Assembly (NCBI GenBank): GCA_944349535.1
Contig: CALVNA010000001.1
Coordinates: forward strand, 21,325-85,324
Direction of reading: 5' to 3'
From: an uncultured Clostridia bacterium
GTDB lineage: Bacteria; Bacillota; Clostridia; Christensenellales; UBA1242
Length of the DNA stretch: 64,000 nucleotides
Every line of letters begins with the position of its first letter. Within the stretch, counting starts at the first letter, position 1. The notes beneath the pieces were generated by a model, which was given only the letters and a program-made list of their open reading frames with translations, had not been told where the DNA came from and ran no database searches. Shown here piece after piece: positions 14,609 through 39,732 of this stretch. Made by a program: the position numbers and the translations under genes.

Positions 14609-15940
14609 TTAATCTTTTTTCACTTCAATCATATATGCAGTTGGCACATTTTCCACTTTTACCTTTTCTGAAATTTCAACACCGGCAATAGCATAAATCT
14701 CGTTTCCGTCTGCAAGCACAGGCAAGATGTTTCGAATGCGGAGTGGAATTTTTTTGTCAATCAGATACGATTTTAATTTTTTGCTGCCGCCACCAAATTT
14801 TTCAAAAACATCCCCTTCTTGTCTGAATCGCCAAGTTGCAGTTTTTGGCACTTTGCGATAGTCAACATAAAGAACTCCTGGCTTTGCTTGAAAATCTTTG
14901 ACTCGTTTTACGCAAACCTTGCCAAAACCTTCGACTTCAAATTCTCCACATTTAAACGGTTGCTCCAACGTCTGTTCGTCTTTATGTTTATTGACAATAG
15001 CAACATAGTCATATTCTTTGATTGCAACAGCATCAAAAGGCAAACTGATTCGTTTTCCGTTTTCCATTTTTGCAAGGTCCAAAATCATGTCTATATGCTT
15101 TCTTTCAATATCTTTGGTGATGCCAATATTGCTAAGCGCTCTGAAAATTATGCGAGTGATAAGCGGTCTGTCAAAAAAGAAATAGCTTGTTGGAATTTTT
15201 GCTTCATCGCCATCGATAATCACAGCATCAGCAAAAAGATTTTTGTTGATATACTGATCGTCTTCGCTGACCGCCTGACCAAAAGACGCGATTGCTTTGA
15301 CTGCGTTTGGCCATCTTGTCAAAACGTTTTTCATGATCACATTTCGAATAAAATTTCGATTGTAAGTTGAATCAAAATTTGTTTCATCGTTGACATAGTC
15401 AAGATTGTTGTCTTCAATATATTGCAAAATCTCTTGCTTTGTGGTGCTCAGCATTGGTCTGATATACACATTGTCTCTGATAGGCTCCATTCCTTTTGCG
15501 CCAGACACTCCACTGCCTCTAAAAATGTGCATCAGAATAGTCTCTGCCTGATCTTGCATATGATGAGCAAGAGCAATTTTGTCAACAAGACCTTTTCTGA
15601 GCAACGTTTTAAAAACGCCGTAACGAGCATCTCTTGCAGCCGACTCAATGCTTATGTTTTTTTCTTTTGCAATTTTTGGCGCATCAACTCTGAACTTATA
15701 AAATCTGACGCCAAGCTCTTTTGCTTTTTCTTTTGCAAAGTCTGCATCAACATAACTGTTTTCTCTTATTCCATGGTCAATGTGAATTGCAACAACTTCG
15801 ATATCATATTTTTGCTGATTGCTTGCCAAAAAATGAAGAAGCGCCATTGAATCGCTGCCACCACTAAAGCCAACACCAATCACATCGCCTGGCATTATCA
15901 TTTTTGTCTTGTCAATAAAAGTCTCAATACTGTTTTGCAT
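14609..15940 (-). CDS. tilS: tRNA(Ile)-lysidine synthase
   Basis: PP-loop SGGSDS (GVGFSGGSDSMALLHFL), 443 aa. Lies downstream of spoIIE as in Bacillus. Confidence 0.9.
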   Translation of the reverse strand: MQNSIETFIDKTKMIMPGDVIGVGFSGGSDSMALLHFLASNQQKYDIEVVAIHIDHGIRENSYVDADFAKEKAKELGVRFYKFRVDAPKIAKEKNISIESAARDARYGVFKTLLRKGLVDKIALAHHMQDQAETILMHIFRGSGVSGAKGMEPIRDNVYIRPMLSTTKQEILQYIEDNNLDYVNDETNFDSTYNRNFIRNVIMKNVLTRWPNAVKAIASFGQAVSEDDQYINKNLFADAVIIDGDEAKIPTSYFFFDRPLITRIIFRALSNIGITKDIERKHIDMILDLAKMENGKRISLPFDAVAIKEYDYVAIVNKHKDEQTLEQPFKCGEFEVEGFGKVCVKRVKDFQAKPGVLYVDYRKVPKTATWRFRQEGDVFEKFGGGSKKLKSYLIDKKIPLRIRNILPVLADGNEIYAIAGVEISEKVKVENVPTAYMIEVKKD

Positions 15941-16090
15941 CTTGTCTCCTTAAAATAGTCATTTTTTGCAAAACATATTATACACTAAAAATTAGATCTA
16001 AGCAATAGTAAAATATGAAAAAAACAAATAATTTGCATTTTTAAACAATTTTTTTTCGTAAAATCTGCTTGAAAACTTAAAATTTTTAAA

Positions 16091-18367
16091 TTAAAAAATT
16101 TTTACCACCAAACAAGTCATATCATCGACTGCGTAGCCATTGTTGTTTGCAAGAGCTTTGTCAACCACGCTTTGAGCAAACTCTTGTGGGTTTGTTGTTT
16201 TGATTGTCAGCAAAAAATCTCGATAGTCATTATCGCTGCCAAACGAGTCATTGACACCATCGCTTGAAAGCACAATGAAATCTTTTTCAGAAAGCACAAC
16301 TTTTTTGACCAAAGGTTTTGCTTCTTGAATCACTCCAATAGGCAAAGCTCCACTTTCAAGCACCTGGCAACCGTCTTCGCTTCTGACAAATGAAGCTGTG
16401 GCGCCCATCTTTACAAAATCTGCAATGCCGCTTTTAAGATCGACCACGCAAATATCAATGGTTGAAAACATTTCATCTTTTTCAAGGTTGAGAAGTTTGT
16501 TGACTGAAGACAAAATGATTTCGTTGTCAAAGCCTGCCTTGTAAAAATTTTCAACAAGACCTATGGCCGTTTCTGACTTTTCTTTCGCCTGCTCTCCACT
16601 GCCCATGCCGTCGCAGATGGCAAACATAAATTTGTCGCCGTCAAGCCTTTCAATGCTATGACAATCGCCTGACTGAGCTGAGCCCGATTTGTTTTGCTGA
16701 GCAATGCCAAAAATGCAGTCGTATCTTGGAGCCGTTTTTAAATTGACAGTTGTGAGCCCTGCTTTTGTCGATGGATAGGTCTCATAAATTGCCATATTGT
16801 TGCCGCAGACTTTTGAAACCACCGATTGAAGCTTTGTTTTGATCACATCTTCGTCTCTTACAACCAGTGATGCAATCATCGTTCTTGCGTTTTTGTCATA
16901 CACCACCGCATCAGCACAAGCAATATTGTTGAAGGCTAGCTCATCAATCAATTCTGTTTCTTTGTGATTGTCAAAAGTCAGAATTGGCTCAACCTCTTTT
17001 GACAGATCTTTCATAAGGCCAGCAACTCCTGCAAGTTGATCAGAAATCAACAGTTTGCTGGTGTCAACATTGCCCACCAGCTGACTGTATGATTTATATT
17101 GACTCGTCAAGGTGTTTATTTGGCTGATAAGCATATTGGCCTTGCCACAACGAGAGGTCAAATAGCTTGGCAAATCCAGTATTGTTATGCGACCTTTTTC
17201 AAGAGCTATTGTGACCAATTCTTCAAAAACCTGTTTTGTGTCATTTGAAAAAGTGCGATGACAATGTTTTTCTTCTGGACAATTTTTGCAAATTGTCGAG
17301 CGCAATTCATTATACAGCATTTCTTTGACTTGCTCTGGGCTAAGCTCTGACTTAATCAGCTTTTTAAAAACACTGTTCATCTCAAAAAACACTTCTGAAA
17401 GATTGTCAAGTCTGCGATGAAGCATTTCTCGGTTTCTGTTGATCAGATTTTTCACAGCAACTTTTTGACCGGACGTATTAAACAGTGCGCCAATTTCTTG
17501 ATACCACTTTGATGGAATAGCATAAAAAACAAGGCAAGAAATCAAAACTGGTAAAATTTCAATAATGCCAAAGGTGTAGTATAGCCTAAAATAAAATCCG
17601 CAAATCAGTTCTGCAGCAACAAGTCCAATCACTGAAAAGATGCGATTTTTGGTGGTGAAGATGCTGGCAAACAATGACCACAGCATAAGTGGAGCGAAAT
17701 ATATTGGATTGTTTGAAGAAAGCATACTGCCAAAAGCAATCAGTCCAGCCACAAGCAAGCCAGACCGTGAAGAGCTGGTATAAATAAAGGCAAGAATCAA
17801 AAAACTTGCAAACAACTTCAAGAAAGAAAAAGAAGAAAGGTTGAAATTGTTTAGCCCTGCCGAAAACGCAACAAGAAGAATGCAGGCACAAACCATTTCA
17901 AAATTTGAAAACTTGAAGGCTGTTCCCCGAATGAGCAAAGGCTCAAAAATTGTGATGGCGCTGTAACAAAAAGCAATCGCTGTAAGAAGGTTTATTACAA
18001 TCAAAATTGGGTTGACCCCGCCAAGCGCCTGAAAACAAATGCTTGCCGTTTGACTGACCGCCAGGCACAAAAAAAGCTCCCATTTTTTCATTCCTTTTTT
18101 ACACAAAACATGCACGTAATAAGGCAGCACGAGGGCAAAAATTGTTACAAGAGTGCAAATTGCGTTTTGAAGCGTAAACTGATTGACAAGAGCTGAAATA
18201 ATGTACGCTGGCGACAAAAGCCAAACTTTTTGATTTGCCCAGGCAAGAGCAAAAAGCATAGCAAACGAAAACGGATAAATAAGTCCAGCAATTGACGCAA
18301 GATTTAAAACATAAAATAAAATTATGTAAGCAAGAAATTGAGCAAAAAAGAAAAGCTTTGTTTTCAT
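16091..18367 (-). CDS. spoIIE: Stage II sporulation protein E (membrane PP2C phosphatase)
   Basis: About 10 N-terminal TM segments plus a C-terminal PP2C domain (FAICDGMGSG..., ...VLSSDGVNDSF..., ...DDMTCLVVKI). ATG 18367 is preceded by GGAG. Confidence 0.85.
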   Translation of the reverse strand: MKTKLFFFAQFLAYIILFYVLNLASIAGLIYPFSFAMLFALAWANQKVWLLSPAYIISALVNQFTLQNAICTLVTIFALVLPYYVHVLCKKGMKKWELFLCLAVSQTASICFQALGGVNPILIVINLLTAIAFCYSAITIFEPLLIRGTAFKFSNFEMVCACILLVAFSAGLNNFNLSSFSFLKLFASFLILAFIYTSSSRSGLLVAGLIAFGSMLSSNNPIYFAPLMLWSLFASIFTTKNRIFSVIGLVAAELICGFYFRLYYTFGIIEILPVLISCLVFYAIPSKWYQEIGALFNTSGQKVAVKNLINRNREMLHRRLDNLSEVFFEMNSVFKKLIKSELSPEQVKEMLYNELRSTICKNCPEEKHCHRTFSNDTKQVFEELVTIALEKGRITILDLPSYLTSRCGKANMLISQINTLTSQYKSYSQLVGNVDTSKLLISDQLAGVAGLMKDLSKEVEPILTFDNHKETELIDELAFNNIACADAVVYDKNARTMIASLVVRDEDVIKTKLQSVVSKVCGNNMAIYETYPSTKAGLTTVNLKTAPRYDCIFGIAQQNKSGSAQSGDCHSIERLDGDKFMFAICDGMGSGEQAKEKSETAIGLVENFYKAGFDNEIILSSVNKLLNLEKDEMFSTIDICVVDLKSGIADFVKMGATASFVRSEDGCQVLESGALPIGVIQEAKPLVKKVVLSEKDFIVLSSDGVNDSFGSDNDYRDFLLTIKTTNPQEFAQSVVDKALANNNGYAVDDMTCLVVKIF

Positions 18368-18400
18368 AAAATCTCCATGCTTCAATTATAAAAAACTGTT

Positions 18401-18436
18401 TAAAAAAGACATAGTCGATTGCTGTCAGACTATGTC
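18401..18436 (-). terminator. Intrinsic terminator after the guanylate-kinase-like gene
   Basis: GACATAGTC-N11-GACTATGTC inverted repeat followed by a T-run on the minus strand. Confidence 0.55.
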
Positions 18437-18454
18437 GAAGTTTGCAGAAAATGG

Positions 18455-19003
18455 TCAATTGTGCTCGTCAACAACCTCTAAAATTTTTTTGACCGTTTGA
18501 CTTAAGTCATTGTTTTCAATAACAAGATCGTAATCTTTTTTATAAGTTCTTTCCATTGGTGCTCTTGAAAGCCTAAGTTTTATCTGCTGATCACTTTCGC
18601 CTCTTTTCTTCAAACGCCTTTCAAGCTCTTTATCGTCCGCTTCAAGAAAGATTGACAAGATGTTTTTGTTGTGAAAAAATTTTCGCAGTTTCTGATTGCC
18701 TTTGACATCAATATCTCGAATATAATGATGTTTTTCATCCGTTTTTGCTTTTTCAAGTTCATCTTTTAAAATTCCTCTGTAAGAGTTATGCAAAAACTCA
18801 TATTCAAAAAAAGCTCCTTCTTCAACTTTTTTTAAAAAGTCTTCTGGCGAAACGAAAATATAAAAACCTTTTTGCTCTTCATTTTCTCTTGGCGGTCTGG
18901 TGATAGCAGAGCGAAAAACTTTAAAATCTTTTCGCGTTTTCAAAATTTCTTCAATCACAGTGTTTTTTCCGCTTCCTGAAACACCAGAAAGAACTATAAG
19001 CAT
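18455..19003 (-). CDS. Guanylate kinase family protein
   Basis: P-loop LSGVSGSGKNT, and ITRPPRENEEQKGFYIFVSPEDF, which is typical of GMP kinases. Confidence 0.65.
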   Translation of the reverse strand: MLIVLSGVSGSGKNTVIEEILKTRKDFKVFRSAITRPPRENEEQKGFYIFVSPEDFLKKVEEGAFFEYEFLHNSYRGILKDELEKAKTDEKHHYIRDIDVKGNQKLRKFFHNKNILSIFLEADDKELERRLKKRGESDQQIKLRLSRAPMERTYKKDYDLVIENNDLSQTVKKILEVVDEHN

Positions 19004-19165
19004 TTTGCCTCCTTTGCACTGAATGGTTTTGCTTTTGTGATGGGTTAAAACTCAAAAAGCAAAATCTTTCCTCGACTTTTATTCTGTTTCTTTTCATAAG
19101 TATAAAAAAATTGCAAAGTTTTGTCAAACTCAAAACTTGCAATTTGAAAATTAACCATTTTAAAA

Positions 19166-19855
19166 TCACATATCAAAAAAATTGATTATGCCATAGAGCA
19201 GGCTGTAACAAAAACTTTTTCGATACTGCTCTGTTTGCAAAAGTTTTTCTTCTTCTGGGTTTGACAAAAAACCGCATTCAACAAGACAGGCGGGAATTTC
19301 TGAATAATTGAGCACGAAATAGTCGCCAACACTGACGCAATCTCTTGCGTTTTCAAAACTTTGGCTTAGCGAGGTTTGAACGCTTTTTGCAAGTTCAAAA
19401 CCCAGCCCTGAACCTTTTGCATAAAAAACTTGAGCGCCTGAACTTGAAGGAAGCGGAAAAGCGTTCATGTGAAGACTGATCATAAGGTCGGCGCCTGAAT
19501 TGTTTATGATATTTTTTCGCTTTTCCATCTCGCTTTTCTTTTTATTTGGGGCGCTTTCGTCATATAGTCCATCCATTGTTGATCTTGTAAGCACAACATC
19601 AAACCCAAATTGTTGACAAAGCTCTTTGAGCTCTAAGGCATATTCAAGATTAAGCTTGCTTTCAGTTACGCCTGTGGTTTTGCCAACAGCGCCCCCGTCT
19701 CTTCCGCCGTGCCCTGCATCAATCACAATGGAGTGCTGCGCTCTCGGCGAACTTGTCGCCCTAACTGCAAAACAGACCCCAACACCAAAGCAAAGCAAAA
19801 TTATGCCTGACAAGATAACACACAATGTGCGCTTTTTTACGGTTATAAATTTCAT
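19166..19855 (-). CDS. cwlD: N-acetylmuramoyl-L-alanine amidase, CwlD-like (Amidase_3)
   Basis: N-terminal TM, IVIDAGHGGRDGGAVG, ADLMISLHMNAF, GAQVFY, LVECGFLSNPEE. Length and architecture match germination-specific CwlD. Confidence 0.75.
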   Translation of the reverse strand: MKFITVKKRTLCVILSGIILLCFGVGVCFAVRATSSPRAQHSIVIDAGHGGRDGGAVGKTTGVTESKLNLEYALELKELCQQFGFDVVLTRSTMDGLYDESAPNKKKSEMEKRKNIINNSGADLMISLHMNAFPLPSSSGAQVFYAKGSGLGFELAKSVQTSLSQSFENARDCVSVGDYFVLNYSEIPACLVECGFLSNPEEEKLLQTEQYRKSFCYSLLYGIINFFDM

Positions 19856-19972
19856 ATGGTATTTTATTAGACAATATGATTATATATAACAAAAAAGTTG
19901 GCACTAAACATTGAAAACACAAAAATTTAGGTGTTATTCTTTTTTTGTATTTAAAATAAGAGGAGATTTAAA

Positions 19973-20153
19973 ATGATGAACAAATATGCTCCCAAAAGGT
20001 GCTTGGAACAACGATTTTAGCAAAACACTATCTAAAAAAGATTGGGATAAACTCCGTGAATTTGCAATTAAAAAAGCAAATGGACAGTGCGAAATATTAG
20101 GTGGAGAAACAATCTCAAAAAACTTTGAAATATTGCCACAGGAGGTGTTATAA
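19973..20153 (+). pseudogene. Frameshifted/truncated small gene; N-terminus resembles an HNH-endonuclease-type lead-in (...WDKLREFAIKKANGQCEI...)
   Basis: RBS AGAGGAG sits 8 nt before ATG 19973, which reads MMNKYAPKR... and stops after 15 codons. The +1 frame from ATG 19986 reads MLPKGAWNNDFSKTLSKKDWDKLREFAIKKANGQCEILGGETISKNFEILPQEVL*. Its TAA overlaps the next ATG (TAATG). Confidence 0.45.
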
Positions 20154-20179
20154 TGGGGATGTGTAAACCAAGTGGCGGA
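20100..20179 (+). repeat. 80-bp direct repeat, copy 1 (77/80 identical to 21001-21080)
   Basis: GGTGGAGAAACAATCTCAAAAAACTTTGAAATATTGCCACAGGAGGTGTTATAATGGGGATGTGTAAACCAAGTGGCGGA. It spans the upstream ORF 3' end, the RBS and the first 9 codons of the small His/Trp-rich gene. Confidence 0.9.
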
Positions 20180-20431
20180 GTTGAAAAAGAAGTCGGAAAA
20201 TTAGGAAGCTTGCCACGTAAATACAAAAAACCTAATGTCCGAGTAGATTTGTATAATGACAAAAGAGAACTAATTCAACAAAGATGGTATGGAGCAGATT
20301 GTTGGGTTGTTCATAATAGAGACTATAATCATGGCTACCCTCGCCCACATGACCATTATTGGAATTGGAATGCTAACAAAGGTCCTCAAAGAAGCAAAGA
20401 ACATTCTGCAGTAGATGATAATTTTTGTTAA
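20153..20431 (+). CDS. Small His/Trp/Asn-rich protein T1 (92 aa), candidate stand-alone toxin-tip-like domain
   Basis: Complete ORF with RBS GGAGGTG. Paralog of 21054-21350. Shared motifs: MGMCKPSGG, GSL, R[VI]DLYN, QQRWY, NRD, PHDH.W.W, and a C-terminal Cys. Confidence 0.6.
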   Translation: MGMCKPSGGVEKEVGKLGSLPRKYKKPNVRVDLYNDKRELIQQRWYGADCWVVHNRDYNHGYPRPHDHYWNWNANKGPQRSKEHSAVDDNFC

Positions 20432-20441
20432 AGGAGAAAAA

Positions 20442-20900
20442 ATGGAAAAAGAGATTAAAAGAATAGCAAAATGTGATGTTTGCAAGAACAGGATTGAAAC
20501 AGATCAATATGGAAATAGTAATGCCTGCCCGAATTGCGGTTGGATACAATCAGAAGAATCTTATCAACATCCAAACGTTCCTGGTATAAGAAATATTCCA
20601 TCTTTGAATAATGCTATAAAACAATATAACAATGGAAAGTCTGCTACATTAGCAAATTTCAATGATTTTATTGAAACATATAACAATTATGGAGAAGTCG
20701 AGTTTACCTTAAATAACACAAGGTATGGCGTTTTATATGATGATGATAATAAAAAAATAGCATTATTAAATATACAAACAAATGAAAAACAATTATTCAA
20801 TGATATATATGATTTTGAACAAAATGCAAAAATAAATGGAAAACTATTAAAAGGCTTATGGGATAATGTAACTTTAACTGATTTTTTGCAAGAAACTTAA
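20442..20900 (+). CDS. CPCC-like zinc-ribbon protein I1 (152 aa), candidate cognate immunity protein
   Basis: RBS AAAGGAG. CDVC..(14)..CPNCGW followed by P..IPSLNNAIKQY and a C-terminal domain shared with two paralogs. Confidence 0.6.
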   Translation: MEKEIKRIAKCDVCKNRIETDQYGNSNACPNCGWIQSEESYQHPNVPGIRNIPSLNNAIKQYNNGKSATLANFNDFIETYNNYGEVEFTLNNTRYGVLYDDDNKKIALLNIQTNEKQLFNDIYDFEQNAKINGKLLKGLWDNVTLTDFLQET

Positions 20901-21000
20901 TATATAAAAGGTGCCAATAAAAAGGCTCCTTTTTCTATACAATAAAATTCATTTGTTTATCGTTATCAGCAAGAATTTAAAATTCAAAATTATAGGTATG

Positions 21001-21080
21001 GGTGGAGAAACAATCTCAAAAAACTTTGAAATTTTGCCACAGGAGGTGCTATAATGGGAATGTGTAAACCAAGTGGCGGA
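21001..21080 (+). repeat. 80-bp direct repeat, copy 2
   Basis: Three mismatches versus 20100-20179, located 901 bp downstream of copy 1. Confidence 0.9.
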
Positions 21081-21350
21081 ATAAAACCACAATTGGGGAA
21101 AATAGGTAGTTTAAAAGCTTATGGAGACCCGAATACAAGAATTGATTTGTATAACATTGAAAATCCAAATGAATTATTACAACAAAGATGGTACGATTCA
21201 AATGGGAGAGCCGAAATGAATAGAGATTGGAAACATTCCAATAAAGGCGAAGAACATAAATTCCCACATGACCATCCATGGGATTGGACTAAAAAGAATC
21301 CAAGGCTAAAATACGATCCAAATAGGGAAATCAATAATCACTATTGTTAA
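21054..21350 (+). CDS. Small His/Trp-rich protein T2 (98 aa), paralog of T1
   Basis: MGMCKPSGGIKPQLGKIGSL...QQRWYDSNGRAEMNRDWKHSNKGEEHKFPHDHPWDW...HYC. Confidence 0.6.
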   Translation: MGMCKPSGGIKPQLGKIGSLKAYGDPNTRIDLYNIENPNELLQQRWYDSNGRAEMNRDWKHSNKGEEHKFPHDHPWDWTKKNPRLKYDPNREINNHYC

Positions 21351-21358
21351 AAGGAGAT

Positions 21359-21829
21359 ATGATGAAAAATAAAAGCATTTACGATGAAATTTTTGACAAA
21401 CCCTGTTCGGTTTGCAAAGAGATGATAAAAAAGGATGTCTATGACCAAGGTGATTGCCCATACTGCAAATGGAAAAACAACTTTTTAGCCGACGAAAATC
21501 CAAATAGAGTCATCTATCCAAACTTAATTTCTCTAAATAAAGCGAAAAAACTTTATAGCGAAGGCAGGCCTTTTGAGCCTAATCTTGATGATTTTGTTGA
21601 AGCATTGTTCTTTTATAGTGAAATGCAATTTGAATATAATGGAACATATTATGCTGTTGAAATTGTAAATGATAAAAATAAAAATCTTATAATTCGTCTT
21701 TATAATTCTAAAACAAAAGAAACAACACTTTTTAACAATGATGAAGATTTCAAAAACAATGCCAAGGTCGATGGTAAACTTTTAAAAGATATTTGGAATG
21801 ACGCTACCGACAAATACTGGTTGCAATAA
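21359..21829 (+). CDS. CPCC-like zinc-ribbon protein I2 (156 aa)
   Basis: RBS AAAGGAG. CSVC..CPYCKW, NLISLNKAKKLY, PNLDDFVEA, and a C-terminal ...DFKNNAKVDGKLLKDIW. Confidence 0.6.
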   Translation: MMKNKSIYDEIFDKPCSVCKEMIKKDVYDQGDCPYCKWKNNFLADENPNRVIYPNLISLNKAKKLYSEGRPFEPNLDDFVEALFFYSEMQFEYNGTYYAVEIVNDKNKNLIIRLYNSKTKETTLFNNDEDFKNNAKVDGKLLKDIWNDATDKYWLQ

Positions 21830-21840
21830 AAAAGGTAAAA

Positions 21841-22296
21841 ATGAAAAATACAAATATATATGATAAAATTTTCGAAAAAAAGTGTGCAGTTTGCGATCAT
21901 AAATATATGGCTGATATCTATGACCAGGGAGAATGCTCAAATTGTGGGTGGTATAATGGCAAAATATACAGCGAGTTTCCTGATAATGTTATATTTTCAA
22001 ACTTAGCCTCTTTAAACAAAGCAAAAAAATTATATAAAGAAAACAAACCCATGAATCCCGATTTAGACGATTTTCTTGAAGCATTTGAACATTATGGCGA
22101 AACAGGATTTGATTATCAGAATATAGGTTTTTCACTATTTAGATATGGCGAAAATGGAATAGAATTTAGTTGGGGTCCCGAGCCATATGGCACAATATAT
22201 TTCAAAGACAAAGAAGATTTTGTTCAAAATGCAAAAATAGGGAATGAATATGTCCGAAATATTTGGGACAAAATTGAAAATCCTTGTTATCTATAA
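21841..22296 (+). CDS. CPCC-like zinc-ribbon protein I3 (151 aa), no partner small gene
   Basis: CAVC..CSNCGW, NLASLNKAKKLY, PDLDDFLEA, ...DFVQNAKIGNEYVRNIW. Confidence 0.6.
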   Translation: MKNTNIYDKIFEKKCAVCDHKYMADIYDQGECSNCGWYNGKIYSEFPDNVIFSNLASLNKAKKLYKENKPMNPDLDDFLEAFEHYGETGFDYQNIGFSLFRYGENGIEFSWGPEPYGTIYFKDKEDFVQNAKIGNEYVRNIWDKIENPCYL

Positions 22297-22307
22297 GATG
22301 AAAACTT

Positions 22308-22334
22308 AAGCATATCAACCGATATGCTTTTTTC
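22308..22334 (+). terminator. Intrinsic terminator closing the cassette array
   Basis: AAGCATATC-AACC-GATATGCTT followed by TTTTT. Confidence 0.7.
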
Positions 22335-22657
22335 TTTGGCTTTTTTTATCTTCACTGCTTAACAGCCTTGTCTGAAGCGACACGACAAGTTTTGTTAAAC
22401 AAAAACTTTAGGAGCAAAACAAAACAAGCACCTTATACACAAGCAAAAGGCTGCTTAGGCAAAAAGCAAACGCTGTTGCTGCAAAAACAGTTTTAAGTTT
22501 AAAACAAAAAATTTTCATGTTAATATTTATGATCCGACCAAAAAAATTATGAATTTTGGCTTAAAATTTGCCAAAATGCCTGTTTCAAAAAAACAAAAAC
22601 CTTTGGAAATCACTCAAAATTCTTTTGTTTTTGCTAGTAACGACCAAATTCTGCTAA

Positions 22658-22712
22658 TTATCCACAGAGTTATCCACATTTTATCCACAATTGGCGTGAA
22701 AAATGTGGATAA
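22658..22712. promoter_or_regulatory. Cluster of four perfect DnaA boxes (3 direct TTATCCACA + 1 inverted TGTGGATAA)
   Basis: TTATCCACA at 22658-22666, 22670-22678 and 22681-22689. TGTGGATAA at 22704-22712. Confidence 0.8.
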
Positions 22713-22727
22713 TTTTTTTTGCTTTTC

Positions 22728-22756
22728 TTGACAATTTTGTTTGTTTGTGTGATAAT
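22728..22756 (+). promoter_or_regulatory. Sigma-A-type promoter (TTGACA-17-GATAAT) immediately downstream of the DnaA boxes
   Basis: The -35 box is at 22728-22733 and the -10 box at 22751-22756. ATG 22763 is only 7 nt past the -10 box and has no SD sequence. Confidence 0.45.
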
Positions 22757-22762
22757 TCTTAT

Positions 22763-23359
22763 ATGAATTTGCTGCTTTCCATCATGTTTTTATTCTCGTC
22801 TATGGCTGTCAGTTCAGCACCTGTTGAAGTGATTGCTTCGTCATGCTTTCTTTATGAAGAGCCTTCTTTTGAAAGCGAAAAAGTGCAGGCTGGCGACATC
22901 GATCTGGTGCTTGATTTTGGTCAAACACTCACCCTTCTTGTTGAAGAAGATGACTTTGCTCTTGTTAAAACTGCAGAGGGGCAAGTGGGTTATATTTATA
23001 AATATTACATCTCAAACAAAGACGACTTTGAAGTGTATCCTTCCTTTAACGGTTATGTCAGAACTGACAATGCCGTCATTTACAACCTTGAATTTGAGCC
23101 AACATCTTACAAAGCTTCTGCAGGTCAAAGAGTGTTTTTATACCAAGGGTTTGACTCTGAAGGAGATTTTGTGGCCGTGCAAATTGTTTTGGAAGATGGC
23201 AGCCTTTACAACGGCTATATGTTAAAAGCAGACATTGAACCTGACGGCATAAGCGCAACGCTGATTGTTGGCATAACAATCATTGTGGCGGTTGCAACCA
23301 TCATTTTGTCGCTGCTGTTTATCAAAAAGAAAAAGAAAAAATCTGGCAGCAAAGATTGA
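22763..23359 (+). CDS. Secreted, C-terminally membrane-anchored protein with two SH3b-like domains
   Basis: Signal MNLLLSIMFLFSSMAVSS. SH3b-like ...ALVKTAEGQVGYIYKYYIS and ...LYNGYMLKADIEP. C-terminal TM plus KKKKKK. The track start 22703 is less likely. Confidence 0.6.
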   Translation: MNLLLSIMFLFSSMAVSSAPVEVIASSCFLYEEPSFESEKVQAGDIDLVLDFGQTLTLLVEEDDFALVKTAEGQVGYIYKYYISNKDDFEVYPSFNGYVRTDNAVIYNLEFEPTSYKASAGQRVFLYQGFDSEGDFVAVQIVLEDGSLYNGYMLKADIEPDGISATLIVGITIIVAVATIILSLLFIKKKKKKSGSKD

Positions 23360-23404
23360 ATTTGAAAAAACTCCTTTTTAAAATCATAATAAAAGGAGTT
23401 TTTT

Positions 23405-24418
23405 ATGAATATCAACAATATTTTTGACGATCTTGAAAAATTAAAAAAAGAAGTCTGGTATTTGATCAAAAAAGTCATACCAAAGCTTGAAGAGTTGATT
23501 GGCGGTTCTTCTGCTGAAGAAATAACTCAAATAAAGCAGCAATTGAACTCACAAGTTGAGCAAATTGAAACATTGCAGTCGCAAATGGAAGCAGCCACCT
23601 CTCTTGCAAATGCAGCAAACACCACTGCTCAAGGTTTGTCTTCAACAGTTTCAAATCTGCAGAGCGGCTTATCGAGTGCTCAAGAAGAGCTGGACGACAT
23701 TTCTTCAAACCTCACAACAATAAGCCAAGTTGTCGATGGCAATTCTGGCTCAATCATTCAACTTTCAAACTCTCTCTCTTCCGTTGATGCAAAAGCAACC
23801 CAAGCTCTGAGCACAGCAAGCGACTTGAATGATGATGTGGTGGCCGTTTCAAACCAAGCTGCTGCATCAGCCACCAAAATCAACACGATGGAAGATGATA
23901 TTGAAGCTTTAAACACTTTGAGCAGCTCTCAAACTCAAACCCTTACAACTCTATCACAAAGTGTTGAAACAATTTCGTCAAGCATTCAACAGCTTGAGGA
24001 TGAGATTGCAAATGCAAAGCTTGAAGATTGCGATGTGATCTATGATATGTCAAGCACTGATGCTGATGTGAATCGCGGATTTACCAGCGGCATGGTTGGC
24101 GCCAACTTTTTCGCTTTTGACTTCTCGCCTTATCACACGATCAGAATATATGCCAGACTTTTCAGTTCAAACTGCATTCAAGAAGTGCGGGTGCACAACA
24201 GAAAACTAGCAGACATCACTTTGTTTGCTGCCGGCCCAAACCCAATCATCCTGTGCGTGTTGAAAGTTCTTTTTGCAATGGAACCTGCTCTCAACCGCAT
24301 ACAAGTTGGTTCTTATGCAAGATACACCTATTCAGCAAGCACAGGCACCTTCACCTCTGCAACTGGAGCTTCAGATTCCACCTTTTTCATTTACAGAATT
24401 GAAGGCATAAAAAAATAA
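23405..24418 (+). CDS. Coiled-coil protein with C-terminal beta-rich globular domain (phage tail-fibre-like architecture), 337 aa
   Basis: RBS AAAGGAG. About 200 aa of Ser/Thr/Gln/Leu heptad-like sequence, then a Cys/aromatic-containing C-terminal domain. No signal peptide. Confidence 0.5.
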   Translation: MNINNIFDDLEKLKKEVWYLIKKVIPKLEELIGGSSAEEITQIKQQLNSQVEQIETLQSQMEAATSLANAANTTAQGLSSTVSNLQSGLSSAQEELDDISSNLTTISQVVDGNSGSIIQLSNSLSSVDAKATQALSTASDLNDDVVAVSNQAAASATKINTMEDDIEALNTLSSSQTQTLTTLSQSVETISSSIQQLEDEIANAKLEDCDVIYDMSSTDADVNRGFTSGMVGANFFAFDFSPYHTIRIYARLFSSNCIQEVRVHNRKLADITLFAAGPNPIILCVLKVLFAMEPALNRIQVGSYARYTYSASTGTFTSATGASDSTFFIYRIEGIKK

Positions 24419-24443
24419 ACGCTCAAAAGAGCGTTTTTTTTGT

Positions 24444-24755
24444 TTAAAAATTTAATGTTAAAAATCCGGCAGTAAAACCATAAGCAATCAGAAAGACGGT
24501 GCAGCCAAAGAATAAAACCCCTAGCACAGCATTCAAAATTGGTAGCGGTGCGCCGTGTTTGATTTCTTGAACGGAGGTGTTCAGCAAAAAAATAATTCCG
24601 ATAAAATAGCTTTCTATTATAAGACAATACCAGGGGTTGATGCCACCAACAAAATACAGCACCACGCTTGCAGCCACGCAAAGAGAGGCAAAAAGAGCCA
24701 AAAATCTGTTTAAGTTCAACCTTTTTTTCATTCTCTCGTTTCGAGTTCTATCCAT
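24444..24755 (-). CDS. Small membrane protein (103 aa, ~3 TM), unknown function
   Basis: Complete ORF preceded by GGGGGGGGGAG. Hydrophobic helices. Confidence 0.5.
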   Translation of the reverse strand: MDRTRNERMKKRLNLNRFLALFASLCVAASVVLYFVGGINPWYCLIIESYFIGIIFLLNTSVQEIKHGAPLPILNAVLGVLFFGCTVFLIAYGFTAGFLTLNF

Positions 24756-24769
24756 TCTCCCCCCCCCTA

Positions 24770-24907
24770 ACTATATGTGATGATAAAGTTTTATTAATAT
24801 AAAATCTTATAAATTCTGACGAGATTTGTGTGCTATCACCCACTTATCACATAGTATGCACAACCTTCAGGCTCACTCTTACAAGCAAGTTTGACTTCTG
24901 ATAGTAT
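24770..24907. other. Conserved ~137-nt intergenic element, copy A (paralog at 46881-47017); candidate structured RNA / 5' leader
   Basis: Alignable by eye over its whole length to copy B. On the minus strand it abuts the RBS of 24444-24755. Confidence 0.5.
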
Positions 24908-24949
24908 CAGTATATAACAAAAAGTCTTAAAGGTCAAACAAAATCAACC

Positions 24950-25786
24950 TTAAAATTTTGGCACAAACTCAGATTTTGCACTTTCAAGATCTTGAATGTA
25001 GCCATGATTTAAGCCAAGCTTTTTTGCATGACTTACAACAATCTTATATTCCAGCGGCAAAAGTTTTCTGTCAAAAGGCTTGCCAAAAGGAATAAATTGA
25101 CTCATAAGAGATATCAATGGACGATCGACCTCTTTTTTTATTGCATTCAAAACGCCGATACTGTTTTGCACATTTTGCGGCAAAACAAGATGTCGGATGA
25201 GCACTCCTTGTTTGAGTTTGTTGTTTTGCCAGATGTTTGGCTTGAGCCGAGCCATTGTTGAAATTGCTTTTGTTGCCACTTCAAAATAATTTGGAGCAAG
25301 CGAAAGCTTGTTGGCAAGCGTGTTGTCGCTATACTTAAAATCAGGCAAAAAAACATCAACAAATTTTGCGATTTTTTCAATCGTCTGCTCGTTCTCATAT
25401 CCACCACTGTTCCAAACAACAGGGATGGGGCAATCAAAACCTTCAAAAGCTTGCAACAAAAGTGAAGAAAAATGTGTTGGTGTGATAAGCTCAAGGGCAG
25501 AATAATTTTCTAAACAAAAGCTTTCAAGTTTTTGTCTGAACTGAGCTGGAGAAAACTCGTCCCCCACAAGTTGATGCGAAATTTTGTAGTTTTGGCAAAA
25601 ACTGCATCTCAGATTACAGCCTGCCAAAAATATGGCAAGAGTGCCTTTCTCCCCTGTTATGCAAGGCTCTTCCCACATAAAATTTTCTATTATTTTTGAA
25701 ACCACAATTTTGTTTTGTGCAAGACAAAAACCTTTTTCTTTTTGTCTGTCAACCTGGCAAAATCTTGGGCAGTCTGAACATTTCAT
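24950..25786 (-). CDS. Radical SAM protein, PflX/COG1313-like (PFL-activase homolog)
   Basis: CNLRCSFCQN CxxxCxxC motif, plus an N-terminal Cys cluster MKCSDCPRFCQVDR...GFC. Confidence 0.7.
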   Translation of the reverse strand: MKCSDCPRFCQVDRQKEKGFCLAQNKIVVSKIIENFMWEEPCITGEKGTLAIFLAGCNLRCSFCQNYKISHQLVGDEFSPAQFRQKLESFCLENYSALELITPTHFSSLLLQAFEGFDCPIPVVWNSGGYENEQTIEKIAKFVDVFLPDFKYSDNTLANKLSLAPNYFEVATKAISTMARLKPNIWQNNKLKQGVLIRHLVLPQNVQNSIGVLNAIKKEVDRPLISLMSQFIPFGKPFDRKLLPLEYKIVVSHAKKLGLNHGYIQDLESAKSEFVPKF

Positions 25787-25833
25787 AATGATATTATAAT
25801 AAAAAATTTTCTTTTAGGCAATCTAAAAGAAAA

Positions 25834-26172
25834 TTATTTTAAAACAACAATCGTAATACCTGGATTGTTTTTGTTTAAATCTTCATCGTCTGCAAGCGCT
25901 TTTGTTTGCATGATCAATTTTTTTGTCTTTTCATCAAAATTGTTCCATTTATCACCAAAGAAAAAATCTTGAATTTGACCTTTCTTTTTCATTTCAGACA
26001 ATAGTTTGCGACTTCCAGTCAAAATCACCCCGCCTTTGCCATGAGAGCCATAGCCATGCAAAATTTTTAAAACTCTTTCGCCTGCAAAACTTGCCTGTTC
26101 GATTTCAATTTCAACTTGAGCAAGTGCCAGGTCGAGTGGCGGAGAGTTTTCTTTAAGATTTATCACCCACAT
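25834..26172 (-). CDS. Smr-domain-like small protein
   Basis: ...VLKILHGYGSHGKGGVI... resembles the Smr core. Confidence 0.45.
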   Translation of the reverse strand: MWVINLKENSPPLDLALAQVEIEIEQASFAGERVLKILHGYGSHGKGGVILTGSRKLLSEMKKKGQIQDFFFGDKWNNFDEKTKKLIMQTKALADDEDLNKNNPGITIVVLK

Positions 26173-26222
26173 AAACTTTCTCCGTCAATATTTTACACAA
26201 TTTTGTCTTTTAATTCAAGCAT

Positions 26223-26963
26223 TTAGCCTTCCATAATCATTTTGTCTGCGATCAAAGCAATAAGCTCGCCGTTTGTTGGCTTTTCATTGCTGCTGTAAAT
26301 TTTCAAGCCAAAAAGAGTGTTTATGTTTTCAATCTTCCCCCTGTTCCACGCAACTTCGATTGCATGGCGCATTCCTCTTTCAACCTTTGAGGAACTTGTT
26401 TCAAACTTTTCAGCGATTGTTGGGTAAAGTTTTTTTGTGATAGAACCAATGATTTCAGGCTCTTCAACAGCAAGCTTGACAGCTTCTCTTAAAAATTGAT
26501 ACCCTTTGATGTGTGCAGGAATCCCGATGCTGATAAAAATATTGGAGATTTTTTCATCCAGCTGTTTTTCTTCTTTGCTTTCAACAGGCTTCTCTTCCAA
26601 TATGTTTTCAATGCGCTCAGCCAAATTTTCAGGCAAGATTGGCTTTACCATAAAATAGCTTGCGCCTTCTTTGATGGCTTTTGACACAAACCCGCTGTGA
26701 GAAAGATTTGATATGAATATTATTTTTGGCAGGTTTTCTTTCATCTGTTTTTTAAGTGAAGAAAGAACCATAAAACCATCCATGCCTGACAGCATAATTT
26801 CCATCACCAGCACATCAGGTTTTGACTGCACCACTTCTTTGACAACGGTTTGTCCCACCACGCCGCTGCCGACTAAAGCAAATTTTTGGTTTTCTGAAAA
26901 GTATTGTTCAAGAGTTTTGTCTTCTGAATTGTCTGCTAAGTAAATTTTTATTTTATTTTCCAT
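26223..26963 (-). CDS. spo0A: Sporulation master regulator Spo0A homolog (atypical receiver: Glu at the phospho-acceptor position)
   Basis: C-terminal Spo0A-specific domain: IGIPAHIKGYQFLREAV...SITKKLYPTIAEKF...SKVERGMRHAIEVAWNRG...KPTNGELIALIADK. The receiver has PDVLVMEIMLSGMDG where B. subtilis has PDVLVLDIIMPHLDG. ATG 26963 is preceded by AAAGGAG. Confidence 0.85.
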   Translation of the reverse strand: MENKIKIYLADNSEDKTLEQYFSENQKFALVGSGVVGQTVVKEVVQSKPDVLVMEIMLSGMDGFMVLSSLKKQMKENLPKIIFISNLSHSGFVSKAIKEGASYFMVKPILPENLAERIENILEEKPVESKEEKQLDEKISNIFISIGIPAHIKGYQFLREAVKLAVEEPEIIGSITKKLYPTIAEKFETSSSKVERGMRHAIEVAWNRGKIENINTLFGLKIYSSNEKPTNGELIALIADKMIMEG

Positions 26964-27081
26964 TTTGCACTCCTTTCTCGCTCTTTCAATTGCGACAAAT
27001 AAAAGATAACACAATTTTTTGTAAAAAAAAATCATAACCCCTGCCAGTTTTTGCCGAGTTATGATTATTTTTGTAGAAATT

Positions 27082-27115
27082 TGTCGAAAGCCTTTGCTTT
27101 CAGAAATTTGTCTAA
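27082..27115. promoter_or_regulatory. Candidate Spo0A (0A) boxes upstream of spo0A
   Basis: TGTCGAA at 27082-27088 (perfect 0A-box consensus) and TGTCTAA at 27109-27115, each within a repeated AGAAATTTGTC. Confidence 0.35.
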
Positions 27116-27120
27116 AATTG

Positions 27121-28452
27121 TTACAAACTCTTGCCTATCAGCTGATAGCTGCCGTTGCCTGAAAGTGAAGCTCTGTAAAGATAATAGTTTTCATCAACTT
27201 CTTCTGAATCGGAGCTGTCATCTTCTGTTTGTTCAATTTGAGCAAAGAAATAGATGTATCCATCGCTCAGTCCATATGTGCCTGAAATGATTGAGCTCAT
27301 GCTGACAACTGTTTCAACTTCGCCGCTCAAAACGCTAGCTCTGCTTATTTGAGTTGAAGTTGAATAATAAATCCAACCATTTTGCTCAAACAGCACATCA
27401 AAAGTTGTGTCTGAAGAAATCAAAACTTTGGTTGCACCGCTTAAAGTCTTATACACCAAAGAACCGTTTTCTGTGATAAACGCAAAACCTTCTTCAGTTG
27501 CAATCACATTTGAAATTGAATCGTCTGAGTAAAATCTTCCAGTTGCGTCAAAGTTGTTTGACTGAGTGATGTTTTTTTGATAAACTTCAACATCCGAAAC
27601 GTCTGTATCCAAACTATAGAACACAACATCTCCACATCTGTCAAGCAAAGTCAGTTCTGCAGCTTGTGGATATGAATAATCCGTAATTTGACCATTTGCG
27701 AAATCGACTGCTTTGATTTCTATTTCGCCGTCATCATTTGTTGCTGCGTAAACAACATTTTTTAAAGAAGAATTTTCGTCTGCGATTGCGTAACTTTCAA
27801 CATTTTCAGCCAAAATTGTGTTCTCGCCAAGGCTGTCGCCTATTCGGATAGAAGAAAGTTGATATTCTTCTTCGCTGTTTTGAGCACAAATGACATAGTA
27901 ATAATTTCCATCCGAGCCCTTTTGCACTGTGATCTGAGAATTGTCGTCATAACGAGTTGTGTAAATTTCTTGCAAGCCATCTCCATTAAATTTGACTCTT
28001 AAAAGAGTAACTCTGCTATAGTCGTTTTGCAGCTCATCTGTTCTGTGAGTGTTTGTTGAAGTAAAATATATATAAGAGCCATAAACAAACATATCTTGAT
28101 TTTGATAGCCAACAAAACGGTCAGAAACCTTTTCGCTGCCAAGCGGACTTGAATTGTTTGTGTCAGCCCTATCGTCGTCAAAAGTGAAGGATTGACCCAA
28201 ATTCAATCTTGCAAGATATCCTGTCTGTGAAGCCGCACCATAATCAAATTCTTCTGCCGATGAGTCGCTATAGCCGTTTGCAAAATAAAGATAATCGCCA
28301 ATCTGAGCAATTTGCCCACCAAAATGAACAACTTCTTCAAAATAGTAAGGTTGCCCGTTTTCATCAAAAATATCGCTGACAGTTGCACAACCTGTAAGAA
28401 GCAGTGCCACTGCAAAAATCATTGTAAACAATTTTAAAAATTTCTTTTTCAT
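27121..28452 (-). CDS. Lipoprotein, beta-propeller (DUF5050/TolB-like) repeats
   Basis: Lipobox LLLTGC. Recurring blades of the type [GD]xYxYF... Confidence 0.6.
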   Translation of the reverse strand: MKKKFLKLFTMIFAVALLLTGCATVSDIFDENGQPYYFEEVVHFGGQIAQIGDYLYFANGYSDSSAEEFDYGAASQTGYLARLNLGQSFTFDDDRADTNNSSPLGSEKVSDRFVGYQNQDMFVYGSYIYFTSTNTHRTDELQNDYSRVTLLRVKFNGDGLQEIYTTRYDDNSQITVQKGSDGNYYYVICAQNSEEEYQLSSIRIGDSLGENTILAENVESYAIADENSSLKNVVYAATNDDGEIEIKAVDFANGQITDYSYPQAAELTLLDRCGDVVFYSLDTDVSDVEVYQKNITQSNNFDATGRFYSDDSISNVIATEEGFAFITENGSLVYKTLSGATKVLISSDTTFDVLFEQNGWIYYSTSTQISRASVLSGEVETVVSMSSIISGTYGLSDGYIYFFAQIEQTEDDSSDSEEVDENYYLYRASLSGNGSYQLIGKSL

Positions 28453-35394: not shown

Positions 35395-35459
35395 GTCTTC
35401 AATAGGAAGACTTTTTTATTGTCAAAATTCAAAAAGTGTTGTATAATAAAAAAGCAATT

Positions 35460-38045: not shown

Positions 38046-38074
38046 TTGACAAAATAATTTTTAAAATCTATAAT
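38046..38074 (+). promoter_or_regulatory. Consensus sigma-A promoter for dnaA (TTGACA-17-TATAAT)
   Basis: The -35 box is at 38046-38051 and the -10 box at 38069-38074, followed by RBS AAGGAG and ATG 38094. Confidence 0.65.
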
Positions 38075-38093: not shown

Positions 38094-39449
38094 ATGCAAG
38101 ACTTAACTTCGCTTTGGCAAGCTGTGCTTGACAAACTTGAACTGAACGTTTCAAATGTTTCTTTTATCATGTGGTTTAAACCGCTGAAAGTTTTAGATTA
38201 TTCAGAAGAAAACAAAAAATTGATTATTTCCACAAATTCTTCTTCTGCAAAAAATCAGATTATGAGAAACTATTTTGAAAAGCTTTCGTCTGCAATCAAA
38301 GATATTTTTGGTCAAAACATTGACATTGAAATTCTAGACCCAAATGAAGAAATTGAATTTATCAAATTGCATGGTGAAAAAACAGTTCAGAAAGAAGTTG
38401 AAGTTGCAAAAAATCCTTTCAATTCAAAATATACTTTTGATAATTTTGTAGTTGGAAAAAGCAATCAGTTTGTTTATGCCGCAGCAAGAGCGGTGGCTGA
38501 GCACCCTGGCGAAAAATTTAACCCTCTGTTTATTTACGGTGGTGTTGGACTTGGAAAAACTCACCTTTTGCACGCTATAGGCAATTATATACACGAATTC
38601 AACCCAAATCTTAAAGTTATGTATGTAACTTGTGAGCAGTTTGCAAACGATTATATTGAAAGTTTGGGTTCAAACACTAAAAACAAAGCTATTCTTGAAT
38701 TTAGAACAAAATATCGAAATCTTGATGTGTTAATGGTTGACGACATTCAATTTATTTCAAAGAAAACTTCCACTCAGGAAGAATTTTTCCACACCTTCAA
38801 TGAACTTTTTCAGAATAACAAACAGATTATAATTTCTTCAGACCGTCCACCAAAAGATATTGAAACTTTGGCTGACAGATTGCGATCACGATTTACTTGT
38901 GGTTTAATTCAAGACATTCAAACTCCAGATCTTGAAACAAGAATTGCAATTTTAAGAAAAAAGTGTCAACTTGAAAAATACGTTATTGATGATGATGTGA
39001 TCGATTTTATTGCAGAAAAAATAAACACCAATATCAGAGAACTTGAAGGTATGCTTTCAAAAGTATATTTCTTGGCAACCTTGATTGGAAAACGTTCAGC
39101 AACCATGGATGAAGCGCGAGAAGCTTTCAACGGTCAGATTGAAGAAGAAAAAAATGAAGGTTTAAACCCCGACCAAATCATTTCAACAGTTTGTCAATAT
39201 TTTGACATTACAAAAGAAGATATTGTTGGAAAAAAGAAAAGCAAAGATGTTGTTGAACCACGAATGATTGCAATTTATTTGATAAGTGAAATCCTTGAAA
39301 TACCTCTTGTTTCAATCGGAAAAATATTTGGCGGACGAGATCACACAACAATCATGCACTCTCGTGATAAAATTTCTGACCAACTCAAAACTTCACACAA
39401 AATTCAATCCTTTGTCAGCGAAATCAAAAAGATGTTGACAAGTGGATAA
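38094..39449 (+). CDS. dnaA: Chromosomal replication initiator DnaA
   Basis: Walker A GGVGLGKTHL, box VII SDRPP, and a C-terminal DNA-binding domain ...GGRDHTTIMHS... Confidence 0.95.
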   Translation: MQDLTSLWQAVLDKLELNVSNVSFIMWFKPLKVLDYSEENKKLIISTNSSSAKNQIMRNYFEKLSSAIKDIFGQNIDIEILDPNEEIEFIKLHGEKTVQKEVEVAKNPFNSKYTFDNFVVGKSNQFVYAAARAVAEHPGEKFNPLFIYGGVGLGKTHLLHAIGNYIHEFNPNLKVMYVTCEQFANDYIESLGSNTKNKAILEFRTKYRNLDVLMVDDIQFISKKTSTQEEFFHTFNELFQNNKQIIISSDRPPKDIETLADRLRSRFTCGLIQDIQTPDLETRIAILRKKCQLEKYVIDDDVIDFIAEKINTNIRELEGMLSKVYFLATLIGKRSATMDEAREAFNGQIEEEKNEGLNPDQIISTVCQYFDITKEDIVGKKKSKDVVEPRMIAIYLISEILEIPLVSIGKIFGGRDHTTIMHSRDKISDQLKTSHKIQSFVSEIKKMLTSG

Positions 39450-39732
39450 CATGAAAAATTGTTCCACAACTTGTCCACAATTCGTTTTTCAAAATAAAGA
39501 AAATTTTTAAGCAATTTATACAATAAAAACACAATATATAGTGAAACAAAAAAGTTATCCACATTTATACATTCACTATTAAAATTATTATTATTTTATC
39601 AAATAAAAAAATAAGTTATCTTAAAAATCTGCCCAAAAACAAAGGCGAAAAAATATTTTAAAAAATAGCCAAAAATGTTGATAAAAATTTTAATTTATGA
39701 TAAAATTGTTTTTGTAAGAAGGAGATGTTTTT
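39441..39732. other. oriC-like dnaA-dnaN intergenic region (DnaA boxes + AT-rich unwinding region)
   Basis: AGTGGATAA at 39441-39449 (8/9), TGTTCCACA at 39460-39468 (7/9), TTGTCCACA at 39471-39479 (8/9), and TTATCCACA at 39555-39563 (9/9). These are followed by ~150 bp of almost pure A/T. Confidence 0.7.

Follow-up and report, generated by a model that had tools for sequence, protein, structure and literature searches.

DnaA-box clusters in Firmicutes are found near the replication origin (oriC), upstream of genes that differ from one species to the next (PMC2533591, PMC3245932). Those of Bacillus subtilis regulate neighbouring genes and restrain initiation, and DnaA activates sda there via upstream boxes and represses ywlC, yydA and dnaA (PMC2533591, PMC3245932). 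At nrdAB of Escherichia coli, upstream boxes go together with a dual response (PMC8203912). Work on clusters away from the origin has been confined almost entirely to B. subtilis, E. coli and Streptomyces. Here, we report four perfect DnaA boxes in 64,000 nucleotides of DNA from an uncultured Clostridia bacterium (contig CALVNA010000001.1, positions 21,325 to 85,324; the whole of this stretch is called the window below), which stand upstream of the promoter of a gene for an SH3b membrane protein and which provide a phylogenetically dated clostridial case. Judging from the sequence and its conservation, we consider it fairly probable (about 0.6) that these boxes constitute a DnaA-controlled promoter, probably repressed or modulated by DnaA, that doubles as an origin-proximal DnaA-box cluster. 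The original prediction had offered three possibilities: a displaced half of the origin, a DnaA-box cluster or sda-like site, and a DnaA-controlled promoter. The latter two fit the results presented here, namely the conservation of a box-promoter module in ten species and an affinity index far above the B. subtilis threshold (PMC2533591), and the first is disfavoured.

The predicted strength of such a site can be expressed by the index A of Ishikawa (2007), which is the summed affinity of four successive boxes divided by their mean distance (PMC2533591). For DnaA to bind stably in B. subtilis, the threshold is A = 0.3 (PMC2533591), and the eight B. subtilis regions with in vivo DnaA binding have A = 0.36–1.64 (PMC2533591, Table 2). 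The clostridial cluster reaches A = 2.18 (affinity sum 16, mean distance 7.3), the highest value among 200 shuffles being 0.67, and the dnaA-dnaN spacer of the same window has A = 0.10. The cluster is accordingly denser and nearer to consensus than that spacer with its one perfect box, as had been proposed, and DnaA affinity is predicted to be far higher for the cluster than for the organism's own origin.

Like the oriC-proximal clusters of B. subtilis, the boxes described here are intergenic, lie outside but near oriC, number at least four at close spacing and have a high index (A > 0.3), which are the sequence-level marks of a DnaA-box cluster (DBC); in both cases the genes downstream differ between lineages. 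The clostridial site departs from the B. subtilis clusters in its index (2.18 against at most 1.64), in that all four boxes have the top-affinity sequence TTATCCACA, in having only four boxes in a rigid arrangement of three direct plus one inverted, and in its host, an uncultured clostridial clade, and its unrelated target gene. The sda locus of B. subtilis also has several boxes upstream of a promoter, and the locus studied here is located among the sporulation genes cwlD, spoIIE and spo0A. However, sda encodes a small kinase inhibitor under a DnaA-dependent promoter, whereas SH3b envelope and fibre-like proteins are encoded here, and required activation is unlikely, unlike at sda, because the promoter is near consensus and boxless in relatives. 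A pairing of high-affinity boxes with a sigma-70-type promoter is likewise found at nrdAB and dnaA of E. coli, where the outcome may follow the level of DnaA-ATP (PMC8203912); organism, layout and gene all differ, and no boxes of the weak, ATP-dependent type were identified on the clostridial gene's core promoter.

In other phyla, the identical three-box unit with its 3- and 2-nt spacers forms part of tandem arrays found at oriC or at dnaA promoters. The unit was found on at least 120 metagenome contigs and also on 26 viral contigs, and 22 of the 80 loci that were fetched lay beside dnaA. The array described here differs from those in lying 15 kb from dnaA, without an adjacent unwinding element and on an unrelated promoter. 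The datA and DARS loci of E. coli are, as here, chromosomal DnaA-box clusters outside oriC, and they tune initiator activity; datA and DARS2 rely on IHF or Fis sites and on specific box geometries. IHF is not known in Firmicutes.

The box-promoter module and its conservation

Boxes 1 to 3 follow each other in direct orientation with starts 12 and 11 bp apart and together span 32 bp, and the inverted box 4 starts 15 bp past the end of box 3, all of which agrees with the initial description. That description also had box 4 directly abutting the promoter, which needs to be corrected, as 15 bp of T-rich sequence intervene between box 4 and the -35 hexamer. The cluster is housed in the intergenic region 22297-22762, at 15.4 kb from the start of dnaA and 16.9 kb from the perfect box of the dnaA-dnaN spacer, with about a dozen genes between cluster and dnaA. 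This latter box, at 39555, is the fifth perfect box of the 64-kb window and the only one outside the cluster. Among dinucleotide shuffles, the number of perfect boxes per window averaged 0.46 and was at most 3, and none of 100 reached 5. Coordinates of these and other features are collected in the table.

At E up to 0.001, a search of the protein database gave 42 relatives of the SH3b protein, and a scan of GTDB species genomes yielded 48 loci, nearly all of them from metagenome-assembled genomes of uncultured Clostridia or other Firmicutes. The four boxes recur with unchanged spacing in all nine GTDB species that have an SH3b orthologue of 53% identity or more, which together with the window makes ten, and no box cluster was found in any of the 39 scanned species whose orthologue is at most 52% identical. 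On this distribution, the cluster is confined to one genus-level clade of uncultured gut Clostridia. The spacer between boxes 1 and 2 is GAG or TAG in all ten species, and the gap between boxes 3 and 4 is 14 bp in nine species and 12 bp in L016, with a variable sequence (58% identity). In eight species, intervals of 12, 11, 23 and about 22.5 bp from one box centre to the next and on to the -35 hexamer place all of these elements on the same side of the helix. L014 and L016 have lost this helical phasing through 15 bp inserted between box 4 and the -35 hexamer.

Mean pairwise identity among the ten species amounts to 0.96–1.00 for the boxes, 1.00 for the -35 hexamer and 0.91 for the -10 hexamer, compared with 0.38 for the 60-bp upstream flank and 0.49–0.58 for the variable spacers. 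The four-fold degenerate sites of spo0A, 3.5 kb off, have an identity of 0.46, where chance would give 0.31. Since flanks and four-fold sites are near saturation while the boxes are unchanged, the box-promoter module is under purifying selection. About 738 kb of related loci contained 50 perfect boxes, 33 of which fell within orthologous clusters, and the background was about one per 40 kb. In these loci, perfect boxes are thus not scattered at a density similar to that of the cluster, which answers the refuting condition of such scattering that was named at the outset.

The promoter is equally constant. Its -35 hexamer is invariant across the ten species and is separated in every one by 17 bp from the -10 hexamer, which reads (G/A)ATAAT, and in nine of the ten the ATG follows exactly 6 nt past the -10 hexamer without a Shine-Dalgarno sequence. 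Such a 6-nt gap without a Shine-Dalgarno sequence predicts a leaderless mRNA, and the mRNA of the SH3b gene is probably leaderless across the family. The same arrangement, CTTGACAA-17-(A/G)ATAAT-6 nt-ATG, was found in most of the cluster-less relatives inspected, often just past the terminator of the upstream gene, and a CTTTTT-CTTGACAA motif occurs in cluster-less relatives too. As most of the inspected cluster-less relatives share the promoter, it is older than the boxes, which by this comparison are a clade-specific addition to an existing strong promoter, gained at the base of one clade. This order of events, promoter first and boxes later, makes matched species with and without boxes available for comparison. 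In L005 and L017, which represent one lineage, an insertion of 137 bp (9829-9965 in L005) with inverted ends GATGCAA...TTGCATC, resembling a miniature inverted-repeat transposable element, separates the -10 hexamer from the ATG, and the boxes have remained alongside the promoter despite it. As expected of a DnaA-regulated promoter, boxes and promoter are adjacent, box 4 ending 15 bp before TTGACA and the four boxes extending from about -105 to -51 if transcription is assumed to start at the A of the ATG (22763), and they are conserved jointly in ten species.

Table. Positions, strands and properties of features in the 64-kb window.
Feature	Position	Strand	Remarks
DnaA box 1, TTATCCACA	22658..22666	+	exact in 8/10 species; TTTTCCACA in L012 and L020
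DnaA box 2, TTATCCACA	22670..22678	+	3-nt spacer GAG from box 1; exact in 9/10 species
DnaA box 3, TTATCCACA	22681..22689	+	2-nt spacer TT from box 2; unchanged in 10/10 species
DnaA box 4, inverted, TGTGGATAA on + strand	22704..22712	-	unchanged in 10/10 species
T-rich tract in UP-element position, box 4 to -35	22713..22727	+	L014 and L016, 31 bp; the other 8 species, 15-16 bp
Sigma-A-type promoter TTGACA-17 bp-GATAAT	22728..22756	+	11/12 match; TG preceding the -10
SH3b membrane-protein gene	22763..23359	+	start at ATG 22763 by protein alignment, not at the ATG 22703 of the mechanical open reading frame
Hairpin between the two genes	23365..23404	+	-16.5 kcal/mol, z = -4.7
Coiled-coil protein gene	23405..24418	+	coiled coil of ~200 residues, C-terminal beta-sandwich head; model with predicted local distance difference test score (pLDDT) 82
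mnmG	35436-37334
rsmG	37312-38034
dnaA promoter TTGACA-17-TATAAT	38046..38074	+	12/12 match; in 59-bp gap after rsmG
dnaA	38094-39449
Probable oriC, dnaA-dnaN spacer	39441..39732	.	one perfect and three one-mismatch boxes, then AT-rich TTATTATTATT repeat
dnaN	39733-40833

Candidate roles for DnaA at the SH3b promoter

The reading that we favour is one in which the clade would have added a high-affinity landing pad for DnaA just upstream of an older, leaderless sigma-A promoter. Boxes 1 to 3, arranged head to tail about one helical turn apart, have a spacing that would allow DnaA molecules to pack side by side, and with box 4 opposing them across 14 bp a compact DnaA oligomer could form over about -105 to -51. 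Such an oligomer would sit just upstream of the -35 hexamer, over what would be the UP-element region, and bound DnaA may from there modulate RNA polymerase at the SH3b promoter. Repression or damping seems more likely than activation, because the promoter is near consensus and the same promoter is boxless in relatives, and the fact that the promoter stayed strong after the boxes arrived argues against DnaA as a required activator. Expression of the SH3b envelope protein, and perhaps of the fibre-like protein too, would in that case track the level of DnaA and the status of replication.

The site would in addition retain DnaA near the origin, like the oriC-proximal clusters of B. subtilis, since it is located 15–17 kb from oriC and is far denser than oriC. 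The dnaA promoter is without a nearby DnaA box, so that the usual autoregulatory layout is absent, and with a dnaA promoter that is perfect and boxless an external cluster could supply feedback; cluster-less relatives manage without one. If DnaA does control the SH3b promoter, the locus would show how rewiring of the DnaA regulon proceeds between lineages, and the status of replication would be tied to an envelope protein encoded beside spo0A. For annotation, the site cautions against automatically equating oriC with whichever DnaA-box cluster near dnaA is densest.

Several points weigh against a DnaA-controlled promoter. Boxes of perfect consensus should fill at low DnaA and with both nucleotide forms of the protein, which would make them a poor sensor. 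The boxes are placed upstream of the -35 hexamer and not over the core promoter, a layout that activates at sda, so the sign of any effect is uncertain. Strict face-of-helix contact with RNA polymerase is unlikely, given that the phasing is lost in L014 and L016, and the second gene may not simply share the control of the promoter, since a conserved hairpin intervenes. Other DnaA-box clusters may also exist in the genome outside the 64 kb examined.

The best surviving alternative, which we nevertheless regard as unlikely, is that the boxes are a pure DnaA sink with a negative influence on initiation through titration or inactivation, as for DBC[yydA-yycS] or datA, the promoter being adjacent by accident where intergenic space was merely available. 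The cluster does lie near oriC (15–17 kb) and exceeds it by far in index (2.18 versus 0.10), but four boxes would hold few DnaA molecules. A dnaA promoter that is perfect but has no autoregulatory boxes would make another feedback route useful; cluster-less relatives with the same type of dnaA promoter and the same oriC manage, however, without the cluster. Although the 15-bp insertions in L014 and L016 indicate that the distance between boxes and promoter is not strictly fixed, box 4 lies 15–16 bp from the -35 hexamer in eight of the ten species, and the boxes were kept with the promoter when 137 bp were inserted downstream. The sink and the DnaA-controlled promoter are compatible and differ mainly in emphasis.

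Another explanation, speculative and in our view quite improbable, sees DnaA on the boxes as a roadblock or insulator that blocks read-through from a co-directional cassette of toxin/immunity-like genes and so shields the leaderless promoter. The region upstream is hypervariable and on the same strand, and a gene without a Shine-Dalgarno sequence should be translated only from transcripts that start at its ATG. In L001, only 37 bp lie between the upstream stop codon and box 1, too little to accommodate a terminator. The window itself has a good terminator at 22308-22329, 330 bp before the boxes, and cluster-less relatives, in which a terminator immediately precedes the same promoter, do without boxes.

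Comparably little weight is given to the idea of a clade-specific DnaA reservoir or loading site that would loop over 17 kb to the dnaA-dnaN spacer as a positive long-range partner of the unusually box-poor origin, which would then be functionally split, or of an independent clostridial checkpoint of the sda kind that would wire DnaA status to the envelope/fibre gene pair by spo0A. In its reservoir version, the cluster may have been acquired along with the relocation of mnmG-rsmG to dnaA, a rearrangement that is described below.

The dnaA locus and the architecture of the origin

The presence of mnmG-rsmG upstream of dnaA and the lack of boxes there, both of them noted initially, are borne out by the gene map and by the box scan, which found no DnaA box at up to 1 mismatch between 27673 and 38785. 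Past dnaN, the genes dut, rpmH, rnpA, yidD, yidC and jag follow on the same strand. The order rpmH-rnpA-yidD-yidC-jag downstream of dnaN and on the same strand is found in the whole family and is unusual for Firmicutes. Codon 52 of dnaN in the window (39886-39888) is an in-frame TAA; four relatives read TCT (Ser) at this codon, and the remainder of the gene is intact. The TAA may stem from faulty assembly, be a nonsense mutation at strain level or be read through.

The dnaA loci available for comparison were those of the cluster-less L179, which has its SH3b locus on the same scaffold (L180 is a second sample), of L181, a second species that is probably cluster-less, and of the cluster-bearing L182, on the L003 scaffold (L183 is a second sample). 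In L179, L180 and L181, the 320–360 bp upstream of dnaA are free of boxes even when 1 mismatch is allowed, and these three showed no box cluster elsewhere within 10 kb on either side of dnaA. All four aligned dnaA-dnaN spacers share the same boxes and an AT-rich repeat of the TTATTATTA type, in cluster-bearing and cluster-less species alike. Because the cluster-less relatives have the same spacer and no boxes upstream of dnaA, we infer that a one-part origin in the dnaA-dnaN spacer is ancestral. Since they are boxless there without having mnmG-rsmG at that position, the boxless region upstream of dnaA is not due to insertion of these two genes. The mnmG-rsmG pair is directly upstream of dnaA in both cluster-bearing species examined (the window and L182) and in neither of two cluster-less ones. 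A link between the cluster and the move of mnmG-rsmG is only a lead, with two species per side and L181 classed as cluster-less by inference.

These comparisons bear on the first of the possibilities raised originally, a displaced half of a two-part oriC that would loop over 17 kb to the dnaA-dnaN spacer and would be needed for initiation, which we now hold to be very unlikely and which was rejected after spacers from cluster-less and cluster-bearing dnaA loci had been aligned. It derives some appeal from the exact three-box array (3- and 2-nt spacers) that stands beside dnaA in 22 of 80 metagenome loci from many phyla, and from the L078/L127 locus, which has three direct boxes, one inverted box and a promoter upstream of dnaA. 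The window's own dnaA-dnaN spacer is also box-poor (A = 0.10), yet its boxes and AT-rich repeat are kept with or without the cluster, and the location of mnmG-rsmG just upstream of dnaA in both cluster-bearing species but not in two cluster-less ones is offset by the boxless upstream regions of L179/L180 and L181, by which a one-part origin is ancestral and sufficient. At the cluster itself, conservation is limited to boxes and promoter, and neither an unwinding element nor a DnaA-trio is present; about a dozen genes intervene before dnaA. The cumulative GC-skew minimum of the window is at about 34–35 kb and not at 22.7 kb, in a local measure that is confounded by gene strand. Unlike a two-part oriC of the incA/B kind, the site does not directly flank dnaA and has no adjacent conserved unwinding element or DnaA-trios, its flanks being too divergent to align (38% identity), while features of this sort occur in the dnaA-dnaN spacer; the relatives L179, L180 and L181 have no equivalent second cluster near dnaA, and by the local GC-skew measure no switch in strand composition occurs at the site. 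That the boxes are a chance or neutral feature of an AT-rich background and nothing more is effectively refuted by the shuffles, 0 of 100 of which reach five perfect boxes, and by conservation in ten species against nearly saturated flanks and synonymous sites.

In the metagenome contigs L078 (285-316) and L127 (2698-2729), which have a GC content of 0.41, the promoter beside the boxes reads TTGACT-17-TATAAT and apparently points away from dnaA. They come from another organism, and their arrangement is much like that of the module at the SH3b gene.

Downstream genes and neighbourhood

The product of the SH3b gene combines two tandem SH3b domains with a signal peptide, a membrane helix at the C-terminal end and a poly-Lys tail. 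Its Pfam SH3_3 match is weak (E=1.7e-4), and its AlphaFold model (pLDDT 82) led in Foldseek to cell-wall hydrolases with SH3b domains in tandem, among them YrvJ, NlpC/P60 proteins and a phage endolysin, so that match, model and structural neighbours together uphold the label of an SH3b membrane protein. The coiled-coil protein encoded by the second gene matched a phi812 baseplate chain in Foldseek (E=1.8e-4) and models of phage long tail fibres (E=5e-5 to 4e-4), which suggests that its modelled beta-sandwich head resembles the tips of phage tail fibres or baseplates. Searches of Pfam, NCBIfam, PHROGs and the PDB for a name for either product yielded no more than a weak SH3_3 match and generic coiled-coil matches.

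The 3' arm of the hairpin between the two genes is the Shine-Dalgarno sequence AAGGAG of the second gene and is followed by a U-run and the ATG. The hairpin is kept in nine species with paired changes (ACTCC/GGAGT versus TCTCC/GGAGA), and it may be a terminator, an attenuator or an element that sequesters the ribosome-binding site, so that the two genes may not form a simple operon. An Rfam search of the window for known RNA elements found only two tRNAs. Two open reading frames overlapping the cluster, one of 60 aa (22549-22731) and one of 218 aa starting at 22703, were rejected, given the lack of conservation ahead of box 1 and a protein alignment that sets the start at 22763. A prophage or mobile origin of the module was rejected as well, with no match to the exact module in IMG/VR and an empty blastn search against phage genomes; the fibre-like fold encoded by the second gene hints at such an origin, but the synteny of the SH3b and coiled-coil gene pair across the whole family weighs against it.

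The sporulation genes around the cluster (14609-28452) comprise spoIIE, a cwlD-like amidase gene and spo0A, and linkage of the SH3b gene to cwlD and spo0A holds in most of the 48 species. The stretch from cwlD to the SH3b gene is entirely different from relative to relative. In the window, it includes a repeated cassette on the plus strand (20153-22296) encoding two proteins of 92–98 aa that begin with MGMCKPSGG and three Cys-rich proteins of 151–161 aa, two of which were tested and match Pfam Cys_rich_CPCC just under the cut-off; the cassette looks like a polymorphic toxin/immunity array. On the same strand, one uninterrupted open reading frame of 3680 codons or more starts at about 52961 and extends past the end of the window at 64000, and the relative L181 encodes a protein of 6445 aa with a YDG domain near dnaA.

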